64,000 bases of DNA, from the IMG/VR virus record IMGVR_UViG_3300028175_000001; one strand, written 5' to 3'. Both the position numbers and the translations under genes were made by a program. Under the pieces are notes generated by a model. It had not been told where the DNA came from, did no database searches, and was given only the letters and a program-made list of their open reading frames with translations. Shown piece after piece: positions 11,320-54,785 of the stretch (within the stretch, counting starts at the first letter, position 1; the number at the start of each line of letters is the position of its first letter). Source of the DNA: a virus (Duplodnaviria > Caudoviricetes).

Positions 11320-11509
11320 CCCTTAATTTGTGTAATTGATTGTTTCTGTTTCAAGGCACAATCATAAGCCCACTCCAACACTAAGCGGCCAATGCTACCT
11401 GTGCGGAAAAATAATCGTCATTGTTTGCGATTAAGTTAAATGACATTTTACATCTGTCAAGATGGTCTCCTCTGCATAATCACATTCAATCGAATTCCCG
11501 AACACCCCC
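11320..11509 (-). ncRNA. ssrA: tmRNA coding piece of a permuted two-piece gene; tag ANNDDYFSAQVALAA* at 11428..11381
   Basis: 5' GGGGGTGTTCGGGAATTCGAT at 11509; resume codon GCA; tag ends in ALAA-stop; 3' boundary approximate. Confidence 0.85.
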
Positions 11510-11513
11510 AACA

Positions 11514-11606
11514 TTAAGTCATCAAAGTCCAGTCTAGAACAAAATATAATCCCATCATAATCGATATTATAAAAACCCACAATAACAAAGTAGGATTATC
11601 ATTCAT
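11514..11606 (-). CDS. 30-aa hydrophobic peptide inside the tmRNA intervening segment
   Basis: MNDNPTLLLWVFIISIMMGLYFVLDWTLMT*; no strong SD visible. Confidence 0.4.
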   Translation of the reverse strand: MNDNPTLLLWVFIISIMMGLYFVLDWTLMT

Positions 11607-11615
11607 ATGGCTCAT

Positions 11616-11675
<60 letters not shown>

Positions 11676-11679
11676 ACAT

Positions 11680-35509: not shown

Positions 35510-38023
35510 TTAAATAAAAAAATCTTCGATTGTACTTGTTTTTTCATGTTCCCACCCAACGCATTTTAATATTGCTTTTAATGGTTCTAAAAAAGATTTT
35601 TCAAATTGCATTTTATAGTTTATATATTGGTGTAATCCAAACTCGGGGGGTAAGATTGTTCCCATACTAATTACAGTATCTCCTACGGGGTTTGGTTCTT
35701 TAAGATAAGAAAATTTAATCTTTTCTCCCTCCTGAATGATTTGATATTTCTTTGTAAGTTTATGTTCTTTTAATAACTTATTGTGTATAATCGTTCCCTT
35801 TACATGTATAGGAGTACCTTTTTTATACGATAATACACTATCACGATATTTCTCAATTCCTCTTACAGACCTGGGAAATGCAATATCTTCTGGAGAAAGC
35901 AAGTCAAATGATTCTTTAAATTCTTCAATAAATTCTTGCATTTGATGTTCAGAGCCATTCATAAGAATATCGAAAGATTGTTTTAATTTATCCCTACAAA
36001 CTGCGGGAGTCGAAGATTTAACTGATTCTAGTCCCATTACTTTTATTTTGGGTTTAGCATATTGTACTCCTTCACTATTATGAACGTTCATGATATAATG
36101 CTTCTTACCGGTCCAAACTGCTTTGTCTGCAAGAACTTCTCTAGACATATTCATTTTTTGTTCAAATGCATTCATATATACATGCAGTTTATTAAATGAA
36201 TCATTTATACAATCTTGTATTTTTGTATCACATACTTTATCTAAAAATTTAATAATTTTTTCTTTATTGGTTGTATCAGTAAAAACAGTTTTAACTAAAT
36301 CATCTAAACAAATATAAATCGAATCTGTATCGGCGGCTATAATATAATCTTTATTTTTTGTTTTTAGAAGAGCGTTCAAATAAAGATTAACGTCATTTTG
36401 AACCCACCTAATAGAAAGTTGTCCACCAGTTGTGATAGCCGTTGCCTGTCTTTCATCATAAAATCTAAAATATTGATTACCCAAAGCACCATAAGCAGAA
36501 TTGAGTTGAATTTTTCTCGCCATCTGCATGTTATTTAATCTTGAAACCTCTTTTATTAAACGTTTTTTTTCTGTTTCATTTTTTTCATTTTCAAGTAATT
36601 GTGATGTTTCAAGCATATCAGTTTTGAATTTCTTTCTTTCAGCATACATTCTCTCCATCATTTCTGGTAAAAATCCTTGATGATCTCTTGTAAAATGAAA
36701 CCCATTAGCTCCTAAACATACATTTTCAGCATTAGCATAATCTGTATCAATTTCTTGGTCTAACAGGTTATCAATTGATAATGATTTTTGAGGAAGTTTT
36801 GTGAGTAATGTTTCTGGAGAAATATTATATTGCATAATTAAATGAGGATATAAACTGTCTAAATCAAAACTAGCAACCCATTCATACATTCCTGGAACGG
36901 GTTCTTTCACATAAGCACCTATATATGGGTCATCTTTTATTGAATTTTTTTTAGGAGGAAGCTGGATGCCTTTATTTCGTAATTCATTATAAATCAACGT
37001 ATCCCACATTCTAACTTGAGTATAAACATCTGTATAGTTCACCTTAGCATCATACGCTAATACAGTAGCCATTTCGATTAGTTTCATTTTATCTTCTAAT
37101 CGGTTCACAAGTTCTACGTCTTTTATATTATATTCTATAAATTTCTGATAGTCTTCTTTCCAAAGATTGTGTAATGAACCATATTCAGAATAGTCTAATT
37201 TTCGTTCATTTAATTCAACATGAGCAATATGATCTAATCTATATGATTCTTGATTTTTATAAGTAAATTTTCGATATAGGTCTAAATAATCAAGAATACC
37301 AACTCCCATAATCTCATATGATTGCTGGGGTTTTGCTCCTCCAAAACCCATTACTGTTCTTTCGCTCACAAAATGCCAAGGAGATAAATCAGAATAAAAA
37401 GATTTATCAAATAATAAATCCATTCTATTCACGAGATATGGTATATCAAAAAATTTAACATTCCAACCAGTAATAATATCTATATCTTGATTAGACCAAA
37501 AAGACATAAATTCGTGAAGCAAATGCACTTCGTTTTTACAATCAAAATATTTAATATCATTTCTATGTACTTTATATTCCCCATAACCAAAAACATAATA
37601 TGTTCCCTTAAAAGAAACAGTAATTGCAGTGACGGGTTCTTGAGCAATTTCAGGATTGGGAAATCCATTTTCTGAACCAGTTTCTATATCAATGTTAGCA
37701 ATTGTTATTTTATTTAAATCGTATTCTACTTGATTGGGAAAATTGTCTGCAATAAAAGTATAATGATAATTGGTATTTCCAAAAATTTGAAAATTATCTA
37801 TACCTTCATATTTTTTTATAAAATTTCTGGCTTCGTTAATACTGCCGCAGTCAATAGGAGCAAGATAATTGCCATCAAGAGTTTTATATTTTGTGGGTTT
37901 TGGAGAGTTAATGAATAGAGCTGGATTATAATCTATTTTTTCTTTGAAATGAGTTCCAGTAGAATCTATTCCTCTACAATAGATTTTACCGCCCCAATTT
38001 TGAACATTTGTATAAAAAGCCAT
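35510..38023 (-). CDS. 43: Family B DNA polymerase (gp43)
   Basis: DIET exonuclease motif, FDLDSLYP, KIQLNSAYG, DTDS. Confidence 0.97.
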   Translation of the reverse strand: MAFYTNVQNWGGKIYCRGIDSTGTHFKEKIDYNPALFINSPKPTKYKTLDGNYLAPIDCGSINEARNFIKKYEGIDNFQIFGNTNYHYTFIADNFPNQVEYDLNKITIANIDIETGSENGFPNPEIAQEPVTAITVSFKGTYYVFGYGEYKVHRNDIKYFDCKNEVHLLHEFMSFWSNQDIDIITGWNVKFFDIPYLVNRMDLLFDKSFYSDLSPWHFVSERTVMGFGGAKPQQSYEIMGVGILDYLDLYRKFTYKNQESYRLDHIAHVELNERKLDYSEYGSLHNLWKEDYQKFIEYNIKDVELVNRLEDKMKLIEMATVLAYDAKVNYTDVYTQVRMWDTLIYNELRNKGIQLPPKKNSIKDDPYIGAYVKEPVPGMYEWVASFDLDSLYPHLIMQYNISPETLLTKLPQKSLSIDNLLDQEIDTDYANAENVCLGANGFHFTRDHQGFLPEMMERMYAERKKFKTDMLETSQLLENEKNETEKKRLIKEVSRLNNMQMARKIQLNSAYGALGNQYFRFYDERQATAITTGGQLSIRWVQNDVNLYLNALLKTKNKDYIIAADTDSIYICLDDLVKTVFTDTTNKEKIIKFLDKVCDTKIQDCINDSFNKLHVYMNAFEQKMNMSREVLADKAVWTGKKHYIMNVHNSEGVQYAKPKIKVMGLESVKSSTPAVCRDKLKQSFDILMNGSEHQMQEFIEEFKESFDLLSPEDIAFPRSVRGIEKYRDSVLSYKKGTPIHVKGTIIHNKLLKEHKLTKKYQIIQEGEKIKFSYLKEPNPVGDTVISMGTILPPEFGLHQYINYKMQFEKSFLEPLKAILKCVGWEHEKTSTIEDFFI

Positions 38024-38060
38024 TTGGTGAATTTATAATATCAAGGTTTTGAATATCTTA

Positions 38061-38089
38061 ATAATAACACATTATACTATATTTGTCAA
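38061..38089 (-). promoter_or_regulatory. Sigma70-type promoter for DNA polymerase
   Basis: TTGACA-17bp-TATTAT. Confidence 0.6.
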
Positions 38090-38159
38090 CCCATGCATTC
38101 TACTTACAAAAACAAAATAATATTTCCGAAAAAACAATTTTGATTTAACAAATAAAATT

Positions 38160-38624
38160 TTATGGTTTCCAAGGCAAATATTTACCTTTTGTGTATTTAT
38201 TAATTATTAAAGCGGTTTTGCGATTAGTTCCATCATTTTTATAAGAACAATGAATCCAACCACTATTGGGATCACCTTTTGGATCATAATATTCTAAAAT
38301 TATTTGATCAAAATCTAAATTTTTATAAATCCATGTTGCAACTTCTGCATTAGATATGCTATTAATTTCAAAATCTGCGGCCTGACCTCTTGCGTGTTGA
38401 GATTTTCTAGAACTTCCTATTGCTTCACATAATTTAATTGATCTATATCCAGAATTAATTTTTACTGATTTCCCAAAATGTTCTCTTATGGGTTGCAAAA
38501 TATGATTGCATAAATTTGCTAGATTTATTATTTGTTCTTCACTGGGATCATTATCTATATTTTTTCTAATTGCTGTATCAGAAAAAGTCATTTCTTTAAA
38601 TGAAAAATTTTTGGTGAATATCAT
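38160..38624 (-). CDS. Peptidase M15 endolysin
   Basis: INSGYRS, SQHARGQAADF, GWIHCS zinc ligands. Confidence 0.9.
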   Translation of the reverse strand: MIFTKNFSFKEMTFSDTAIRKNIDNDPSEEQIINLANLCNHILQPIREHFGKSVKINSGYRSIKLCEAIGSSRKSQHARGQAADFEINSISNAEVATWIYKNLDFDQIILEYYDPKGDPNSGWIHCSYKNDGTNRKTALIINKYTKGKYLPWKP

Positions 38625-38632
38625 TTTATCCT

Positions 38633-38662
38633 AAAAAATGGAGGCCATATGGCCTCCATTTT
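38633..38662 (-). terminator. Intrinsic terminator after Hsp20
   Basis: AAAATGGAGGCC-atat-GGCCTCCATTTT followed by T run. Confidence 0.9.
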
Positions 38663-38686
38663 ATCATTAACTGAGTTGTATTTGAT

Positions 38687-39157
38687 TTATACAACTTTAT
38701 GATCAACTACTTTAACACCATCATCGATAATGGTAATTTTACGAGGTCTTTTTTCTTCAGGAATAATTCGCTTTAAGTTAATTTTAAGCAAGCCGTTGAA
38801 TAAATCCGCACCCGATACAACGACATCATCAGCGATATTAAATTTTCGAACAAAGACTCGTTTGGCGATTCCATGATGTAGATAACTTTCATCACTTTCA
38901 TCTTTTTGCGGCACTGATTTTATTGTAAGAGTGCCCTCTGTCAGTTCTAAATCTAGATCGTCTTTCGTAAATCCTGCTAAGGCAAGTTCGATTACGTAAT
39001 CGCAATCAGTCACTTTTCGAATGTTATAAGGGGGATAAGTGCCTGAACCACCCGAATTATAAGCATTATCAAATAGACGATTAAAAAAAGAGTCAAACCC
39101 TACTGAGGTCGAAAGTTGGCGATTGAGGTCTTCTATAGTTTTTGGTACTAAATACAT
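38687..39157 (-). CDS. Small heat-shock protein (Hsp20/IbpA)
   Basis: TYPPYNI, IELALAGF, YLHHGIAKRVF, GLLKINL; AGGAG RBS at 39161-39167. Confidence 0.95.
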   Translation of the reverse strand: MYLVPKTIEDLNRQLSTSVGFDSFFNRLFDNAYNSGGSGTYPPYNIRKVTDCDYVIELALAGFTKDDLDLELTEGTLTIKSVPQKDESDESYLHHGIAKRVFVRKFNIADDVVVSGADLFNGLLKINLKRIIPEEKRPRKITIIDDGVKVVDHKVV

Positions 39158-39255
39158 ATTATCTCCTGTATTATTAGCGAGATTAATTATTTTCCTCTGC
39201 AAGGGCCAGAGGATGTTGCTACATGCAACGGATGAGATGCAAATGCACTCTCATA
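39155..39255 (-). promoter_or_regulatory. ROSE-like RNA thermometer (four hairpins)
   Basis: AUCUC-G-CU pairs with SD AGGAGAU leaving a bulged G (U(U/C)GCU motif); three upstream hairpins. Confidence 0.8.
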
Positions 39256-39261
39256 AGATCT

Positions 39262-39290
39262 ATTATACTACTATATATGCAATTTGTCAA
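39262..39290 (-). promoter_or_regulatory. Perfect sigma70 promoter for Hsp20
   Basis: TTGACA-17bp-TATAAT. Confidence 0.9.
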
Positions 39291-39817
39291 GTTCCTGTAG
39301 ACCCAAATCCACCTTCTCTATCGGTTTTTTGATTTGGTCTGTTATTTAGGAAATCAATTTTAAAATTTTCTAATTTACGCAATTCAGCTTGTGCAATTCT
39401 ATCACCATGGGTTATTTGAATAGGGTCATATGATACATTTATCATAATACAATTACATTCTTCCACAAAATCTTCATCAATAATTCCAACATTATTTGCA
39501 GTAATTAAACCCTTTTTCAATGCATTGCCTGAACGTGGATGAATTTTAATATAATGGTCTTTCGGAATATCAAAAATTATTCCTGTAGGAATTAAATATC
39601 TCCAGCCAGGAGACATGAGTAAACAATTATTTTTTATAAAAATTTCTTTTTTAGTATTATATGGATCGTATGCTAATATTTTTGTAAATGAATTGAAATA
39701 TGCCTTTAAATCAAAACATGCAGATTTTTTTGTGGCCAATGTTGGCAGTTCAACATCATCATGCAAACAAAAAATTCCTAATTTTTGTTGTAATGCAACC
39801 GCTGTTGATTCATTCAT
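39287..39817 (-). CDS. dut: Trimeric dUTPase
   Basis: ACFDL, HPRSG, GIIDEDF, GDRIAQ, REGGFGSTG. Confidence 0.95.
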   Translation of the reverse strand: MNESTAVALQQKLGIFCLHDDVELPTLATKKSACFDLKAYFNSFTKILAYDPYNTKKEIFIKNNCLLMSPGWRYLIPTGIIFDIPKDHYIKIHPRSGNALKKGLITANNVGIIDEDFVEECNCIMINVSYDPIQITHGDRIAQAELRKLENFKIDFLNNRPNQKTDREGGFGSTGT

Positions 39818-40215
39818 TATGATTTTTTGCCTATATTATATTTTGGAATCAAAGACCATTCTTTTTTTTCTGAAAAAGACAAAATCTTTAATTGATTTAG
39901 GGGTAAAATTGGATCTGTTGTTTTGTTTACATCAACTAATTTAATTAAATTCCATTCTTCTAACCTATTTGATATTGTATTTCTTCTAGCAATATCTGTA
40001 TCTGAAAAATTATAAGGTTTACCATCAAGAGCAAATAATTCTTTAAAATGTACTATGTAATATTTGCCCTGTTTGTGTAAAATGTGACAAGATTGATAAA
40101 GAGTTTTTTCTTTTCTACTAGCAACACCAATACGAGTTAGTGTTTCTTTTACTTTTAGAAAATCATCAGGTTCTTTTAACGTAATCTCTACCATTTCGCC
40201 GATATCATACATCAT
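39817..40215 (-). CDS. regA: Translational repressor RegA
   Basis: FLKVKETLTRIGVAS...LYQSCHILHKQGKYYIVHFKELFALDG. Confidence 0.97.
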   Translation of the reverse strand: MMYDIGEMVEITLKEPDDFLKVKETLTRIGVASRKEKTLYQSCHILHKQGKYYIVHFKELFALDGKPYNFSDTDIARRNTISNRLEEWNLIKLVDVNKTTDPILPLNQLKILSFSEKKEWSLIPKYNIGKKS

Positions 40216-40621: not shown

Positions 40622-41686
40622 TTATTCTCGTATTGAGGCATACATTACATCTGCATTAATAAAGAGTCTTTTTAAAAGAACATTCACAATTAGAAATCTT
40701 CGTTTTCTCACAATCGTTAATGCGACCGTCTCTCCTATATTATATTTGTATATTTCATTTGAAAACTGTAATCCAGTATTAATAATTACACCATTAATTC
40801 CAATAATGGTATCAAATTTATTTAAGTCCGGCGGAAAACTGTCATTAGGCAATACGAATACCCCAAACGTATTCGGAACGAATTCTGGGTCAATTTCAGG
40901 AAATTTTGTTATAATTTTTTCTCTTTGTTTTTTCAGATTTAATGGTACAACCATAACACCAATTGCTGGTCTATCGACTTTTCCAAACATTAACATAGAA
41001 TTTAAAGACGTTTTTACAATATCGCTTCTAATCGCTAAACCAATTCCTGCATTTTCAGAGATTGTAGAAACGATTAACGTATTGATTCCTACAATTTCTC
41101 CTTTCATATTCAGAAGAGGGCCTCCAGAATTTCCTTTATTGATCGCGGAATCAGTCTGTATCGCTTTGATAAAAGGATGTCCTACAAATCGGTCAATGCT
41201 AGAAACAATTCCTTTGGTTACAGACCAAATCATTCCCATAGGATGGCCTATGGCGAAAACATCAGCACCTACTGATATTGCATTGGTGTCTTTTACAAAT
41301 TCAAGATAAGGAATCGGTTCTTTTTTTCCTATAATTTTAAGTAAAGCTAAATCAGCAAGGGGATCAACACCTATTATCTTTATTTCATACTCTCTCCAAT
41401 CAGTTTGCTCGTGATAATATAATTTTATATAATTTTGTTTGTAAATACAATGAAAATTAGTAATAACATGACCTATATTATCAACAACTGTTCCAGTACA
41501 TAAACCAGTACGTGATGCGTTCGTTTCTGGGTCTGCATTAGGATTCGTAGATAACAATACTACTGATTGGTTTGCTTTTTTAATAACATTTTCAAATGAT
41601 CCGTTTTCTTGTGCTGATATGTTAAACTTGACACCTATAAACATAATAAATAAACATATCAAGATATTATACTTGATATTTTTCAT
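40622..41686 (-). CDS. HtrA/DegP-like serine protease with PDZ domain and signal peptide
   Basis: ITNFHCI, DLALLKI, IQTDSAINKGNSGGPL catalytic triad motifs. Confidence 0.92.
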   Translation of the reverse strand: MKNIKYNILICLFIMFIGVKFNISAQENGSFENVIKKANQSVVLLSTNPNADPETNASRTGLCTGTVVDNIGHVITNFHCIYKQNYIKLYYHEQTDWREYEIKIIGVDPLADLALLKIIGKKEPIPYLEFVKDTNAISVGADVFAIGHPMGMIWSVTKGIVSSIDRFVGHPFIKAIQTDSAINKGNSGGPLLNMKGEIVGINTLIVSTISENAGIGLAIRSDIVKTSLNSMLMFGKVDRPAIGVMVVPLNLKKQREKIITKFPEIDPEFVPNTFGVFVLPNDSFPPDLNKFDTIIGINGVIINTGLQFSNEIYKYNIGETVALTIVRKRRFLIVNVLLKRLFINADVMYASIRE

Positions 41687-44633: not shown

Positions 44634-45821
44634 TTAAAAGGGTGTTTCTGTATCCTCTTCTTCATTAGATGTATTCTCTTCTTCAAGGGTAGATTCTCCG
44701 TCTTCAGCAGGGGTTTCCCCAGGAACAGTAACATCAGCATCAACTTTGCTGTATAAATCAAGAAACGCAGATTTAGTTTCTTCATCAAAACGATTAACAC
44801 ACATCTGAATTGATTTCATTTTATCACCAAAAATAGCGTATGCATTACAAATATGAACTAGTCGGCGAGTAGCAATAATTTCGTCAACACCACCATCGTA
44901 AAATGTTTTACGAATAATGTCCGCCCAGTTTGTAAGTTTATCAACAAACTCTTCATTTTCACAACCAAGAGAAACAAGAACTGCATTGAGAATTTTTTTC
45001 TCAACTGAAATACTCGGATAATCTTGTTCCATAGTAATTGCAAATCTTTCAAGAAATGCTTCATTAAGAATATTTGTTCCGATAAATCGTCCATCATCAG
45101 AACCTTTTCCTTTAGTATTTGCAGTAGCAAAAACATTAAAACCTCGAACGGGACGAATCCATTGATTTATCTTTTTAATGAAAATACCTTTACCTTCAAG
45201 AACAGGTTGCAAACACATAATTTTATTTGATGCAAGATCGACTTCATCAAGAAGCAGAATAGCACCTCGTTTCATTGCTTGAATAACTGGACCATCTTGC
45301 CAAACAGTTTCCCCATCTTTCAAAAGATAGTGACCAAGCAAATCATCTTCATCAGTTTCAATAGTAACGTTAACACGAAACATTTCACGATTAAGTTTTG
45401 CACAAACTTGTTCAACCATGAATGTTTTACCATTACCAGAAAGACCAGTCACAAAAGTTGGATAAAAAATTCTCGATTTGACAATCTGTTCGACATCTTT
45501 ACAATGTCCAAATCTAACAAAATGAGAATCTTTATCTGGAATAAATGATTCGGTTTGTACGGGAAATGGAATCACTTTAGATTCCTTTTTTTCTTCAGGA
45601 TTTTCATTAACAACTGTTTGTGCTAATGCACTTTTCATAGAACCATCAAGTTGAGGGATACGATATACACCTCTAGCAACTTTATATGTCTCATTTTTCT
45701 GCACCCATGCAGTACTCACACCAAGTTGTCTTCCAATTGCTTTCAATTCCGGACGAGAAATTTCGTCTTCATAACCAGCATCAATAACAGCTTGAACAAG
45801 AGCCTTTTGATTCACGTTCAT
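44634..45821 (-). CDS. MoxR/CobS-type AAA+ ATPase
   Basis: GLSGNGKT, LLDEVD, ATANTKG, NEAFLERF. Confidence 0.92.
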   Translation of the reverse strand: MNVNQKALVQAVIDAGYEDEISRPELKAIGRQLGVSTAWVQKNETYKVARGVYRIPQLDGSMKSALAQTVVNENPEEKKESKVIPFPVQTESFIPDKDSHFVRFGHCKDVEQIVKSRIFYPTFVTGLSGNGKTFMVEQVCAKLNREMFRVNVTIETDEDDLLGHYLLKDGETVWQDGPVIQAMKRGAILLLDEVDLASNKIMCLQPVLEGKGIFIKKINQWIRPVRGFNVFATANTKGKGSDDGRFIGTNILNEAFLERFAITMEQDYPSISVEKKILNAVLVSLGCENEEFVDKLTNWADIIRKTFYDGGVDEIIATRRLVHICNAYAIFGDKMKSIQMCVNRFDEETKSAFLDLYSKVDADVTVPGETPAEDGESTLEEENTSNEEEDTETPF

Positions 45822-50183: not shown

Positions 50184-51022
50184 GCAAAAAACCCTTCTAT
50201 GCTTGTACTTGTAGTTTTCCAATCTCTGACTAAATCCATTATTCTACTTCTATTATAGATGTTAATTTCTTTATTGTCAAGGAGTTTTTCAAAATAATTT
50301 GGTATTCCTGCGGCCAACTGTAAATTCAGATGATTTCTTCTCTTTATTTCTAGCAATTCAGGAAATGCATTAAACAATGGCGCTTTTTGATATGGTTTAT
50401 TAAAAAAATTCCAATCATACTCTATCATCCAGTCCCAGACCTTCTTATCGATGTATGGAGCAACTAAAGTAGAATCTATAGTTTCTGCTAATAACATTTG
50501 TTGTTTCACTCCTACAGGGTTTCCTGGAGTGAATTTTTGAGATTCTTTATCAAGTTTACCAAAATAATCATTTCTAAAAACATCAAACAATTCTTTAGTG
50601 TGTTTATAATGAATATTTGCACGTTTACTTACTCCATAATAACCATCAGCGGCCCATCCTGTTAAAATGTATTTTTCTTTTATGTGAGGATAAACATATA
50701 AAAAGGGAAATGTACATTCTACATGAGTTTTCTTTTTACATTCATATTTTTTAATCAAAGTAAAAAAATCATTTTCAATATTATCAACTGGAACATCTAT
50801 AAGTTTAAAATTCCAACCAAAATGATCACATGCTTTTTTTGCATAGATACTATCCTCAGAATCTTTTCCATCAACCCGAAACGTATAGCAATTTAGGGTT
50901 TTATTTAATCTATGCGCCGCTATGGCAACTGTCAAACTATCTGTACCACCAGACATTAATACCGCAACGGTTTGATCGGGTGCTTCTTGATCAATAATAT
51001 CCGTGATAATTTTATCAATCAC
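50180..51022 (-). CDS. Asparagine-synthase-like PP-loop ATP pyrophosphatase lacking a glutaminase domain
   Basis: LMSGGTDS PP-loop, TGWAADGYYG, APYID; GTG start. Confidence 0.75.
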   Translation of the reverse strand: MIDKIITDIIDQEAPDQTVAVLMSGGTDSLTVAIAAHRLNKTLNCYTFRVDGKDSEDSIYAKKACDHFGWNFKLIDVPVDNIENDFFTLIKKYECKKKTHVECTFPFLYVYPHIKEKYILTGWAADGYYGVSKRANIHYKHTKELFDVFRNDYFGKLDKESQKFTPGNPVGVKQQMLLAETIDSTLVAPYIDKKVWDWMIEYDWNFFNKPYQKAPLFNAFPELLEIKRRNHLNLQLAAGIPNYFEKLLDNKEINIYNRSRIMDLVRDWKTTSTSIEGFFA

Positions 51023-53725: not shown

Positions 53726-54785
53726 AGTCTAATGCTTCATTATAGAGTGTTCTTATTAAAGTGTCAAGTTCTTTTTTATCTTTTTGTATGTTTAATGTAT
53801 CTATATAATTACTTAAAATAGTGAGAGTGTCTTCAGCTTCATCAATAACTGAATCATCATCTTCAAATTCAAGATCAATATTTTCCACAACTGATACATT
53901 TACTGCTTCTGCTTTATATAATTCATCCAACATTGTATCAAACCAATACGGATTTTGTTTTTTTACAACTACAACTTTGACAATAGTTCCTGTATATTTT
54001 TCATATTGTTTTTCTTTAATTGATTCAAAGGTTTCTTTAGTGTCATCATAATAAATTTTATGAAACATGCGATAAGGATTTTGAATAAATTCCAATTCTC
54101 TTGTTTTAGTATCAAAAATATGAAATCCTCTTGAATCATTATAATCAGCCCAAGTTATTTCATAAGGATTACCTAGATAAGTAATGCTTCCCTGCGTAGA
54201 TTTATGATGAAAATGCCCACTATATACTAAGTCAAATTTAGAAAACGTGTTCATATCAACCCCATAATCACACACCTGATTGTAATTCATTAAAAAACCA
54301 TTAATTTCAAGATGCCCCATCATAATTTGCGAAGATGTTTTTTTGATAGCATCCATGCATTCTGTATAATTATCTGAAGTAATCCAAGGCATCATTATTA
54401 TTTTAGTACCATCAAAATCCACTTCTCTAGGACTAGAATATACCCATGGTTCATAAAGACCATCTGATGTTGAAAATAATTCAGTCATTGAATTTATTTC
54501 ATTAGTGTTTTTGTAAAAAATATCATGATTGCCAATTATGAAATGAGTGTCAACGCCCATTTTCCACAAGCGGTCCACAAAATTTTCTCTTAAATCATTT
54601 GCAGTTTTAAAATTGATATATTTTCTTCTGTCAACAACATCTCCTAAATGAATACATGCTTTAATATTATATTCCTCAATACGAGGAAAAAAAACATTAT
54701 CATAAAATTTACGAAAATAATTAGAAAATATCACATTATCATTTCTAGCTCCGAAATGAGTATCCGTTATTAATGCTATTTTCAT
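53709..54785 (-). CDS. 47: Recombination endonuclease (gp47, Mre11-like)
   Basis: DTHFG, HLGDVVD, GNHD, SGHFH. Confidence 0.95.
   Translation of the reverse strand: MKIALITDTHFGARNDNVIFSNYFRKFYDNVFFPRIEEYNIKACIHLGDVVDRRKYINFKTANDLRENFVDRLWKMGVDTHFIIGNHDIFYKNTNEINSMTELFSTSDGLYEPWVYSSPREVDFDGTKIIMMPWITSDNYTECMDAIKKTSSQIMMGHLEINGFLMNYNQVCDYGVDMNTFSKFDLVYSGHFHHKSTQGSITYLGNPYEITWADYNDSRGFHIFDTKTRELEFIQNPYRMFHKIYYDDTKETFESIKEKQYEKYTGTIVKVVVVKKQNPYWFDTMLDELYKAEAVNVSVVENIDLEFEDDDSVIDEAEDTLTILSNYIDTLNIQKDKKELDTLIRTLYNEALDYEITA

Follow-up and report, generated by a model that had tools for sequence, protein, structure and literature searches.

In the 64,000 nt of the viral record IMGVR_UViG_3300028175_000001 (the whole stretch is referred to as the window; G+C content 31.6%), the gene for a small heat-shock protein (sHSP), hsp20, is located on the minus strand behind a predicted mRNA leader of 98 nt. 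We regard this leader, with moderate confidence, as a ROSE-like translational control element that is opened by heat in the manner of the bacterial ROSE elements. As judged from sequence comparison, the leader possesses a defined structure, this structure is conserved and covaries between relatives, and it resembles that of a known family of RNA elements. We infer that the leader acts by occluding the Shine-Dalgarno (SD) sequence and that the signal is temperature. The features of the locus are:

39285..39290, minus strand: -35 hexamer TTGACA, part of a 12/12 match to the sigma70 consensus, 17-nt spacer
39262..39267, minus strand: -10 hexamer TATAAT, 12/12 match together with the -35 hexamer
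39232..39254, minus strand: hairpin H1, AUGAGA-(G)-UGC / GCA-UCUCAU, at the 5' end of the transcript, in the minimum free energy (MFE) fold
39215..39229, minus strand: hairpin H2, GUUGC / GCAAC with a variable loop, in the MFE fold
39193..39213, minus strand: hairpin H3, UCCUCUG-(G)-C[CCUU]G-CAGAGGA with the core CCUCUG/CAGAGG, in the MFE fold
39161..39183, minus strand: SD-sequestering hairpin H4, AUCUC(G)CU, 8-nt loop, AGGAGAU, in the MFE fold
39176..39180, minus strand: ROSE motif UCGCU, a form of U(U/C)GCU, with G39178 as the bulged G
39163..39167, minus strand: SD sequence AGGAG, 5 nt upstream of the AUG at 39157
38687..39157, minus strand: hsp20 coding sequence, 156 amino acids, ATG at 39157, TAA at 38689-38687, PF00011 (E 2e-14)

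Folding of the leader with RNAfold resulted in exactly the four hairpins H1 to H4 and an MFE of -31.1 kcal/mol, compared to -20.0 +/- 3.0 kcal/mol in shuffled sequences (z -3.7; 0 of 200 shuffles were equally stable). G39178 is unpaired in both the MFE and the centroid structure, the AUG is free, and UCGCU (39180-39176) pairs with the AGGA of the SD (39167-39164). An earlier note, made from the letters of the window alone, had proposed hairpins of ATGAGA/TCTCAT, GTTGC/GCAAC and CCTCTG/CAGAGG as well as pairing of AUCUC(G)CU with the SD around a bulged G; all of them were located in place on the minus strand and agree with the RNAfold output. H3 has the arrangement stem-G-C..G-stem, as does hairpin I of short ROSE-like elements. 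ROSE-like elements are defined by their position on an sHSP gene, by two to four hairpins, by imperfect pairing of U(U/C)GCU with the SD in the 3' hairpin and by a predicted bulged G in this hairpin (PMC3669281, PMC11182007, PMC4166951). All four properties are found in the window: an Hsp20 gene (PF00011), four hairpins, the UCGCU/SD pairing and the bulged G39178. The start codon of hsp20 is common to its homologues, which likewise open with MYLVPK.

The leader is preceded by a perfect TTGACA-17-TATAAT promoter, and the predicted +1 at 39255/39254, which is derived from spacing only, lies 7-8 nt downstream of the -10 hexamer and gives the 98-nt length. The promoter had been noted before and is confirmed, and the +1 near 39255 proposed along with it agrees with this prediction. 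Perfect promoters of this type occur three times in the 64 kb compared to 0.03 expected, all of them on the minus strand (39262-39290, 50252-50280 and 53739-53767), and are likely strong early promoters of the phage. In the proposed mechanism, host sigma70 RNA polymerase would start at this perfect consensus early promoter and produce a transcript that opens with three stable hairpins, of which H1 at the 5' end probably protects the mRNA. In the last, marginally stable hairpin, UCUC(G)CU would pair with the AGGAGA of the SD and leave the AUG free. As long as H4 is closed, the 30S subunit would be unable to bind; opening of H4 by heat, as in bacterial ROSE elements, would allow Hsp20 to be made.

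The leader was then compared with those of its close relatives. A scan of IMG/VR identified 29 loci of a close clade, 28 of them with a full-length match, whose Hsp20 proteins are 76-93% identical to that of the window over the matched part. The perfect TTGACA-17-TATAAT promoter is kept in all 29 of these viral relatives. When folded singly, 17 of 17 distinct leaders of the clade take the same architecture, apart from two leaders without H3, three with a longer 5' end and one subgroup with a shifted bulge. In the two former (L007, 861-944, and L014, 1423-1506) H3 is wholly missing and H1, H2 and the SD hairpin are kept; H1 has the form stem-G-C..G-stem there. In the subgroup (loci L015, L017, L022-L025, L028 and L039) the anti-SD strand reads AUCU(G)CCU, which is no literal match to the U(U/C)GCU consensus; the bulged G is shifted by one position and all seven SD pairs are kept. 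L039 is a 161-kb contig labelled as the Chloroflexota metagenome-assembled genome (MAG) NAT137 (PAAV01000055.1). It carries the same promoter, a four-hairpin leader and an hsp20 gene with 76% amino acid identity, and is probably a phage genome that was binned into a bacterial MAG.

A covariance model, R1, was built from seven relatives belonging to the shifted-bulge subgroup, with the window left out. It matches the window over the full length of the leader with 56.7 bits (E about 3e-9) and also reaches the more distant loci L056-L059. In an alignment of 22 sequences to R1, 94.1% of the cells are paired compared to 82.0% in shuffles, and changes on both sides occur at 19 of 27 pairs compared to 7.7 in shuffles (0 of 500); as related sequences were aligned by fitting them to the model, these counts are supportive and are not probabilities. 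In a control in which the 3' partners were shifted by 1-3 columns, pairing dropped to 35-57%. The real compensatory changes in these sequences are located in H1, H2 and H3. H1 shows double changes at seven of eight pairs among the 22 members. The stem of H2 is invariant in the close clade and is replaced by a compensatory GUGGC/GCCAC in L056-L059. In H3 double changes occur at five of seven pairs, with CCUCUG/CAGAGG changing to GGAGUUA/UAACUCC. Double changes in H4 were not counted, as they are an artefact of three misregistered rows. RNAalifold on a MAFFT alignment of the leaders returned three pairs only; MAFFT alignments are not structure-aware, and they were replaced by per-sequence folds, model-based alignment and motif-anchored counts.

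The earlier note had suggested a survey of hsp20 leaders in related phages. An alignment of 11 diverse phage Hsp20 proteins was used as query and identified 80 further viral loci, 77 of which had enough upstream sequence. U(U/C)GCU followed by an SD and an in-frame ATG is located upstream of hsp20 in 76 of these 77 loci, and the base at the bulge position is a G in 76 of 77. The one exception harbors UUGCA in the same hairpin. As a control, the same pattern was found upstream of only two of 91 open reading frames (ORFs) of the window that begin with ATG, one of them being hsp20 itself, and AGGAG precedes just seven of these 91. Matches of the ROSE regular expression at the starts at 45097 and 33572 were rejected as spurious, as one lies within a longer ORF and neither forms an SD hairpin; the window thus contains no second copy of the module. 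Another 11 hsp20 loci also possess the SD hairpin, namely those of the isolate phages Mosig, HTVC008M, Melnitz, C48C1, P-RSM1, S-BM3, P-TIM40, P-SSM3, Syn33 and HTVC103P (a podophage) and that of the viral contig L030. Outside the SD core, covariation of the helix is seen among 63 distinct SD hairpins. The pair N-2:SD6 is U-A in 24, C-G in 26 and A-U in four hairpins, so that 54 of 63 are paired compared to 34.5 expected (0 of 2000 shuffles), and N+1:SD0 is paired in 54 of 56 compared to 41.4 expected (0 of 2000 shuffles). The form of the penultimate hairpin (stem-G-C..G-stem, the G being a bulge on the 5' side) was found in 68 of 91 distinct leaders compared to 2.0 expected, including H3 of the window and the bacterial loci; a penultimate hairpin with a 5' bulged G is common to phage, alphaproteobacterial and enterobacterial leaders. 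Together, the agreement with the published definition, the conserved structure with its covariation and the occurrence in 76 of 77 viral loci support the initial identification of the leader as carrying the ROSE signature.

The conservation of the bulge also bears on a simpler explanation, which we consider improbable, that the leader is a constitutive device without sensing, in which the 5'-terminal hairpins stabilize the mRNA and the SD hairpin damps a very strong promoter. H1 begins at the predicted +1, a 5'-terminal stem-loop stabilizes mRNAs of E. coli (Emory 1992, as cited in PMC3669281), and the promoter is a perfect consensus. Furthermore, the mean depth of the hsp20 piece exceeds that of its flanks in metatranscriptome contigs of three out of four studies, which is a weak hint, as contig depth cannot rank genes. 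However, damping could be had more simply from a weak SD, whereas the loci retain a strong AGGAG and pair it through a helix that always contains a destabilizing bulge. The bulged base is a G in 76 of 77 loci, including the subgroup where the bulge is shifted by one. The retention of a bulged G in nearly all loci points to selection for a specific, labile geometry.

The class of the promoter varies by lineage. Among 91 distinct leaders, a sigma70-type TTGAC-N17-TAnAAT is present in 10, TATAAATA, which we take to be the T4-type late-promoter consensus, is located upstream in 24, and the remaining 57 have neither promoter type. As the hairpin leader is present in lineages that differ in promoter class, the leader was kept while the promoter class changed. 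The suggestion that the phage controls Hsp20 without needing sigma32 fits both the perfect sigma70 consensus in 29 of 29 close relatives and the occurrence of TATAAATA in other phage lineages. The nearest bacterial Hsp20 homologues found are encoded at five alphaproteobacterial MAG loci (43-48% amino acid identity), at which CUCGCU/GAGGAG hairpins follow sigma32-like promoters. The phage gene and the two 3' hairpins of its leader appear to have been inherited together from a proteobacterial sHSP locus, and the phage locus would differ from such loci only in its promoter, which is sigma32-like there.

Two sets of results weigh against the leader being a ROSE-type thermometer, the first of which concerns its membership in the described families. 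In searches at E <= 10, the Rfam models ROSE (RF00435), ROSE_2 (RF01832) and ROSE_3 (RF02523) gave no match on the 126-nt leader region, and Rfam as a whole returned only noise on this region and on 1.3 kb around it, for example preQ1-II with 16.8 bits, and no ROSE family. The window scores below about 11 bits on ROSE_3, and three contigs of its clade gave only 9-bit noise away from hsp20. A second covariance model, R2, was built from 32 two-hairpin phage leaders of other lineages and contains no sequence of the window clade. On the window its score did not exceed noise, with 15.4 bits (E 0.2) confined to H4. The reservations on the covariation counts and on H4 given above belong here as well. 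R2 detects the relatives L027 (25 bits, E 6e-4), L008 (20.9 bits, E 0.007) and L057-L059 (26-30 bits); thus the tie of the window to the wider family is transitive, via its close relatives. Some relatives also match ROSE_3 below its gathering score of 43, namely Melnitz with 34.1 bits (E 1.6e-6 when only its own genome is searched, 0.0023 in a search of 46 kb), C48C1 with 26.8 and P-RSM1 with 21.8 bits. Therefore, of the proposed recovery by Infernal and the Rfam ROSE models, only these sub-threshold matches of relatives (21.8-34.1 bits) stood, and the part concerning the window itself failed. The ibpA leader of Salmonella, which is nearly identical to the validated E. coli thermometer, served as positive control and reached 94.9 bits on its own family ROSE_2 and only 23.9 bits on ROSE_3. 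Three of the five alphaproteobacterial MAG leaders likewise reached only 26-29 bits on ROSE_3. Because these bacterial leaders also score low on ROSE_3, failure to reach a gathering score is weak evidence against membership. The leader in the ibpA-ibpB intergenic region of Salmonella (L133, 1090-1195) showed weak matches to both ROSE_2 (22.5 bits) and R2 (14.5 bits).

The same searches bear on the proposal that the leader is the binding site of the phage repressor RegA or a metabolite riboswitch, to which we assign a very low probability. A regA gene is located two genes upstream of hsp20 (39817-40215; PF01818, E 9e-46), and an AU-rich AAUAUGUAU around the start codon, which presumably resembles the RegA targets of T4, is conserved in the close clade. 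However, the RNA that RegA binds at a start codon is AU-rich and unstructured, with no need for hairpins, and the same module is found in the podophage HTVC103P and in bacteria, which are not expected to encode a phage RegA. As the hairpins are independent of each other and the sequences of loops and linkers are free to vary, the leader has no conserved pocket. The best riboswitch match was the preQ1-II hit, whose 16.8 bits compare with a gathering score of 47.

The second set of results that speak against the preferred interpretation as a heat-opened ROSE-like element concerns temperature. The predicted free energy (dG) of H4 is -4.9 kcal/mol at 37 C and -8.1 kcal/mol at 20 C, in nearest-neighbor energies, which take no account of the non-canonical pairs responsible for the lability of real ROSE hairpins. 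Among the helices of the leader, H4 is the weakest and is predicted to melt first, with an SD pairing of 0.98 at 10 C, 0.94 at 25 C, 0.83 at 37 C and 0.67 at 50 C, and H1-H3 are predicted to persist to 50-60 C. The melting profile that the earlier note had envisaged is therefore of the expected kind, with H4 opening first and H1-H3 staying folded. Deletion of G39178 in silico made the hairpin about 3.8-4.4 kcal/mol more stable and abolished the predicted melting. The value at 37 C lies inside the range of validated ROSE-like hairpins of Pseudomonas (-4.1 to -7.6 kcal/mol; PMC3669281). Computed in the same way, the Salmonella ibpA hairpin has -5.4 kcal/mol at 37 C, and H4 at 20 C (-8.1 kcal/mol) equals it at 20-25 C. 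The closely related E. coli ibpA thermometer is repressed at 20-25 C. As H4 is computed to be as stable as the ibpA hairpin, the SD is predicted to stay closed at nearly all ocean temperatures. In addition, seawater temperature hardly changes within one infection. Other viral SD hairpins are predicted to be weaker (median -3.5 kcal/mol at 37 C, 57 sequences). Tuning to cold is not claimed, as only five bacterial loci were available, two of which were misparsed, and H4 of the window is not weaker than the Salmonella ibpA hairpin. By analogy with the bacterial elements, the leader of the window would sense temperature, and three readings of its predicted stability are possible: Hsp20 may be made only under unusual warmth, the non-canonical ROSE geometry may leave the real helix weaker than predicted, or something else may open H4, for which the best candidate is the chaperone itself.

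The last of these possibilities leads to a different view of the leader, namely that it is mainly an operator for autoregulation by Hsp20, as known for IbpA of E. coli. Free phage Hsp20 would bind the leader and repress its own translation, unfolded or aggregating proteins of the infection would titrate it away, so that it is synthesized on demand, and temperature would be secondary or irrelevant. We consider this rather unlikely as the main function. IbpA of E. coli represses its own translation via the ROSE-like 5' untranslated region (UTR), an activity that depends on R93, on an aromatic side chain at Y34 and on the cationic R97 and K98 (PMC10474464). Hsp20 of the window harbors equivalents in TYPPYN, in GIAKR (R93 position) and in VRKF (R97 and K98 positions), and IbpB, which is without this activity, has a glutamine at the R93 position. 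A hairpin that is predicted to be too stable to open at sea temperatures would make sense with another trigger, and the combination of an invariant H2 stem with a variable loop in the close clade would suit a recognition site. However, an arginine at the R93 position is present in all six phage proteins that were aligned and in the alphaproteobacterial protein, which makes it a weak discriminator, and autoregulation is compatible with a thermometer and does not exclude it. It is possible, though not likely, that marine phages have repurposed the ROSE-like module, either mainly as a sensor of chaperone demand, in which Hsp20 binds its own leader because the hairpin is predicted to remain closed in seawater, or as a thermostat that is tuned lineage by lineage to water temperature. 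If so, either form of repurposing would match the dosage of Hsp20 to the proteostatic load of virion production, whatever the class of the promoter.

The genes of the window around hsp20 form a T4-like replication module with the order DNA polymerase, M15 peptidase, hsp20, dUTPase/dCTP-deaminase-like protein, RegA, clamp-loader A subunit (Phage_clamp_A), HtrA-like protease and a putative large clamp-loader subunit. From its translation, we read the ORF at 35510-38023 as a family-B DNA polymerase, which agrees with the annotation of a DNA polymerase gene next to hsp20 in Phage C48C1, and the ORF after the HtrA-like protease gene as the large clamp-loader subunit. An intrinsic terminator was read directly from the sequence and was not reported by a consensus scan tool:

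38633..38659, minus strand: intrinsic terminator, AUGGAGGCC / GGCCUCCAU followed by a U-run; 9-bp stem, 4-nt loop, six U

As this terminator is located just 3' of the stop codon, hsp20 would constitute a monocistronic unit of about 620 nt. The HtrA/DegP-like serine protease (40622-41686, minus strand; Trypsin_2 and PDZ domains, hydrophobic N-terminus) is encoded between the clamp-loader genes, three genes from hsp20, so that the replication module holds two genes for protein quality control. The closest isolates are marine Kyanoviridae, namely the Pelagibacter phages Mosig and HTVC008M, the Methylophilales phage Melnitz and cyanomyoviruses, whose Hsp20 proteins share just about 39-47% identity with that of the window. 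The DNA of the M15 peptidase gene downstream of hsp20 (38160-38624, minus strand) is 65-70% identical to M15 peptidase/endolysin genes of Pelagibacter podophages such as HTVC035P and HTVC010P. Elsewhere in the window, a permuted (two-piece) transfer-messenger RNA (tmRNA) is located at 11381-11677 on the minus strand (Rfam RF04321, 88.7 bits, E 1e-15), with the tag peptide ANNDDYFSAQVALAA according to ARAGORN. Permuted tmRNAs are typically found in alphaproteobacteria, cyanobacteria and part of the betaproteobacteria. The tmRNA may hint at the host, and the likeness of the M15 peptidase gene to those of the podophages would be a second hint, in this case to a host of the SAR11 type.

The phage is widespread in the sea. 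Sampled words of a 644-base stretch (38687-39330 of the window) were all present in 17 of the 20 listed marine or seawater metagenome and metatranscriptome runs, which belong to at least 14 studies. Metatranscriptome contigs from four studies are 100% identical to the window at this locus; they cover 38702-39268, 38629-39332, 38777-39652 and 38000-39614. Their sole differing base is at 39986 in regA, and none is in or near hsp20. The contig spanning 38702-39268 corresponds almost exactly to the predicted transcript and the others extend further upstream. The contig ends in these four studies do not coincide with the predicted +1, and contigs can neither show the ends of a transcript nor exclude carry-over of DNA. 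They are compatible with expression of the locus.

In full-text literature searches, no paper was found in which an RNA thermometer or ROSE element is connected with hsp20 of phages, cyanophages or pelagiphages, and a paper on the phylogeny of cyanophage sHSPs mentions neither promoters nor UTRs nor thermometers. This fits the earlier note, to whose author no description of such an element in a phage was known. ROSE-like elements themselves are known; what appears to be new, as far as can be judged from the nucleotide sequence, is a ROSE-like leader in a phage that comprises four hairpins, is AT-rich and follows a promoter of the sigma70 consensus. Practically all viral hsp20 genes that were sampled are preceded by a ROSE-like module, including those of cultured model cyanomyoviruses and pelagiphages, in which its function is directly testable. 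If functional, it would mean that abundant viruses of the ocean control a chaperone at the level of translation, even across early, late and other types of promoters. What opens a hairpin as stable as that of E. coli ibpA at 5-25 C, whether temperature, autoregulation by Hsp20 or another factor, matters for the way in which temperature and proteostasis shape the production of marine phages. The leaders might also be of practical value as natural AT-rich ROSE variants whose predicted stabilities differ widely.

A paper from 2024 names three published RNA thermometers of phages, that of lambda cIII, that of SPbeta blyA, which is counted second, and a fourU element on the sigma70 gene of a gut phage, and none of them is of the ROSE type (PMC11182007). 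They share with the window a structured 5' leader that controls access to the ribosome-binding site (PMC4166951, PMC10586365, PMC11182007), but none is located on a chaperone gene. The lambda cIII element adopts two alternative structures and is switched off by heat, and in fourU elements, to which that of blyA also belongs, UUUU pairs with the SD. A fourU reading of the window was rejected, since its anti-SD strand is AUCUCGCU, without four consecutive U that pair with the SD.

ROSE1 of Bradyrhizobium japonicum hspA, which represents the alphaproteobacterial ROSE family (RF00435), likewise comprises four hairpins in a leader of about 100 nt upstream of an sHSP gene, and its thermosensing hairpin is the last one and contains a bulged G opposite the SD (PMC4166951, PMC3669281). 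RF00435 shows no match on the window, however, and the bacterial hairpins are GC-rich, follow sigma32-type promoters and are predicted to be more stable (-5.3 to -9.3 kcal/mol, for five loci of which two were misparsed by the script). Compared to the enterobacterial ibpA leader (ROSE_2, RF01832), overall sequence similarity is undetectable, as ROSE_2 gives no match on the window, and the upstream hairpins, the class of the promoter and the genomic context differ. The anti-SD core is nevertheless nearly identical (UCUCGCU...AGGAG, with a bulged G in both), the predicted stability of the hairpin at 37 C is similar (-5.4 compared to -4.9 kcal/mol in the window), and both leaders contain several hairpins, one of which in ibpA has the form stem-G-CC..GG-stem. 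The downstream proteins are 38% identical and share the IbpA-type residues R93, Y34, R97 and K98. The short, two-hairpin ROSE-like element of Pseudomonas ibpA (Krajewski et al. 2013, PMC3669281) differs from the leader of the window in location and promoter, as the latter belongs to a phage and follows a sigma70 consensus instead of a sigma32 promoter. The window leader also has two extra 5' hairpins, is AT-rich and is without the G-C pairs that flank the SD core in Pseudomonas. Both combine a stable hairpin with a short one that sequesters the SD by imperfect pairing with U(U/C)GCU and leaves the AUG unpaired, and in both the dG of this SD hairpin is in the range of -4 to -8 kcal/mol. H3 and H4 of the window thus follow the layout of the Pseudomonas element, and H3 shares with the first hairpin of the latter a 5' bulged G and a C..G top.

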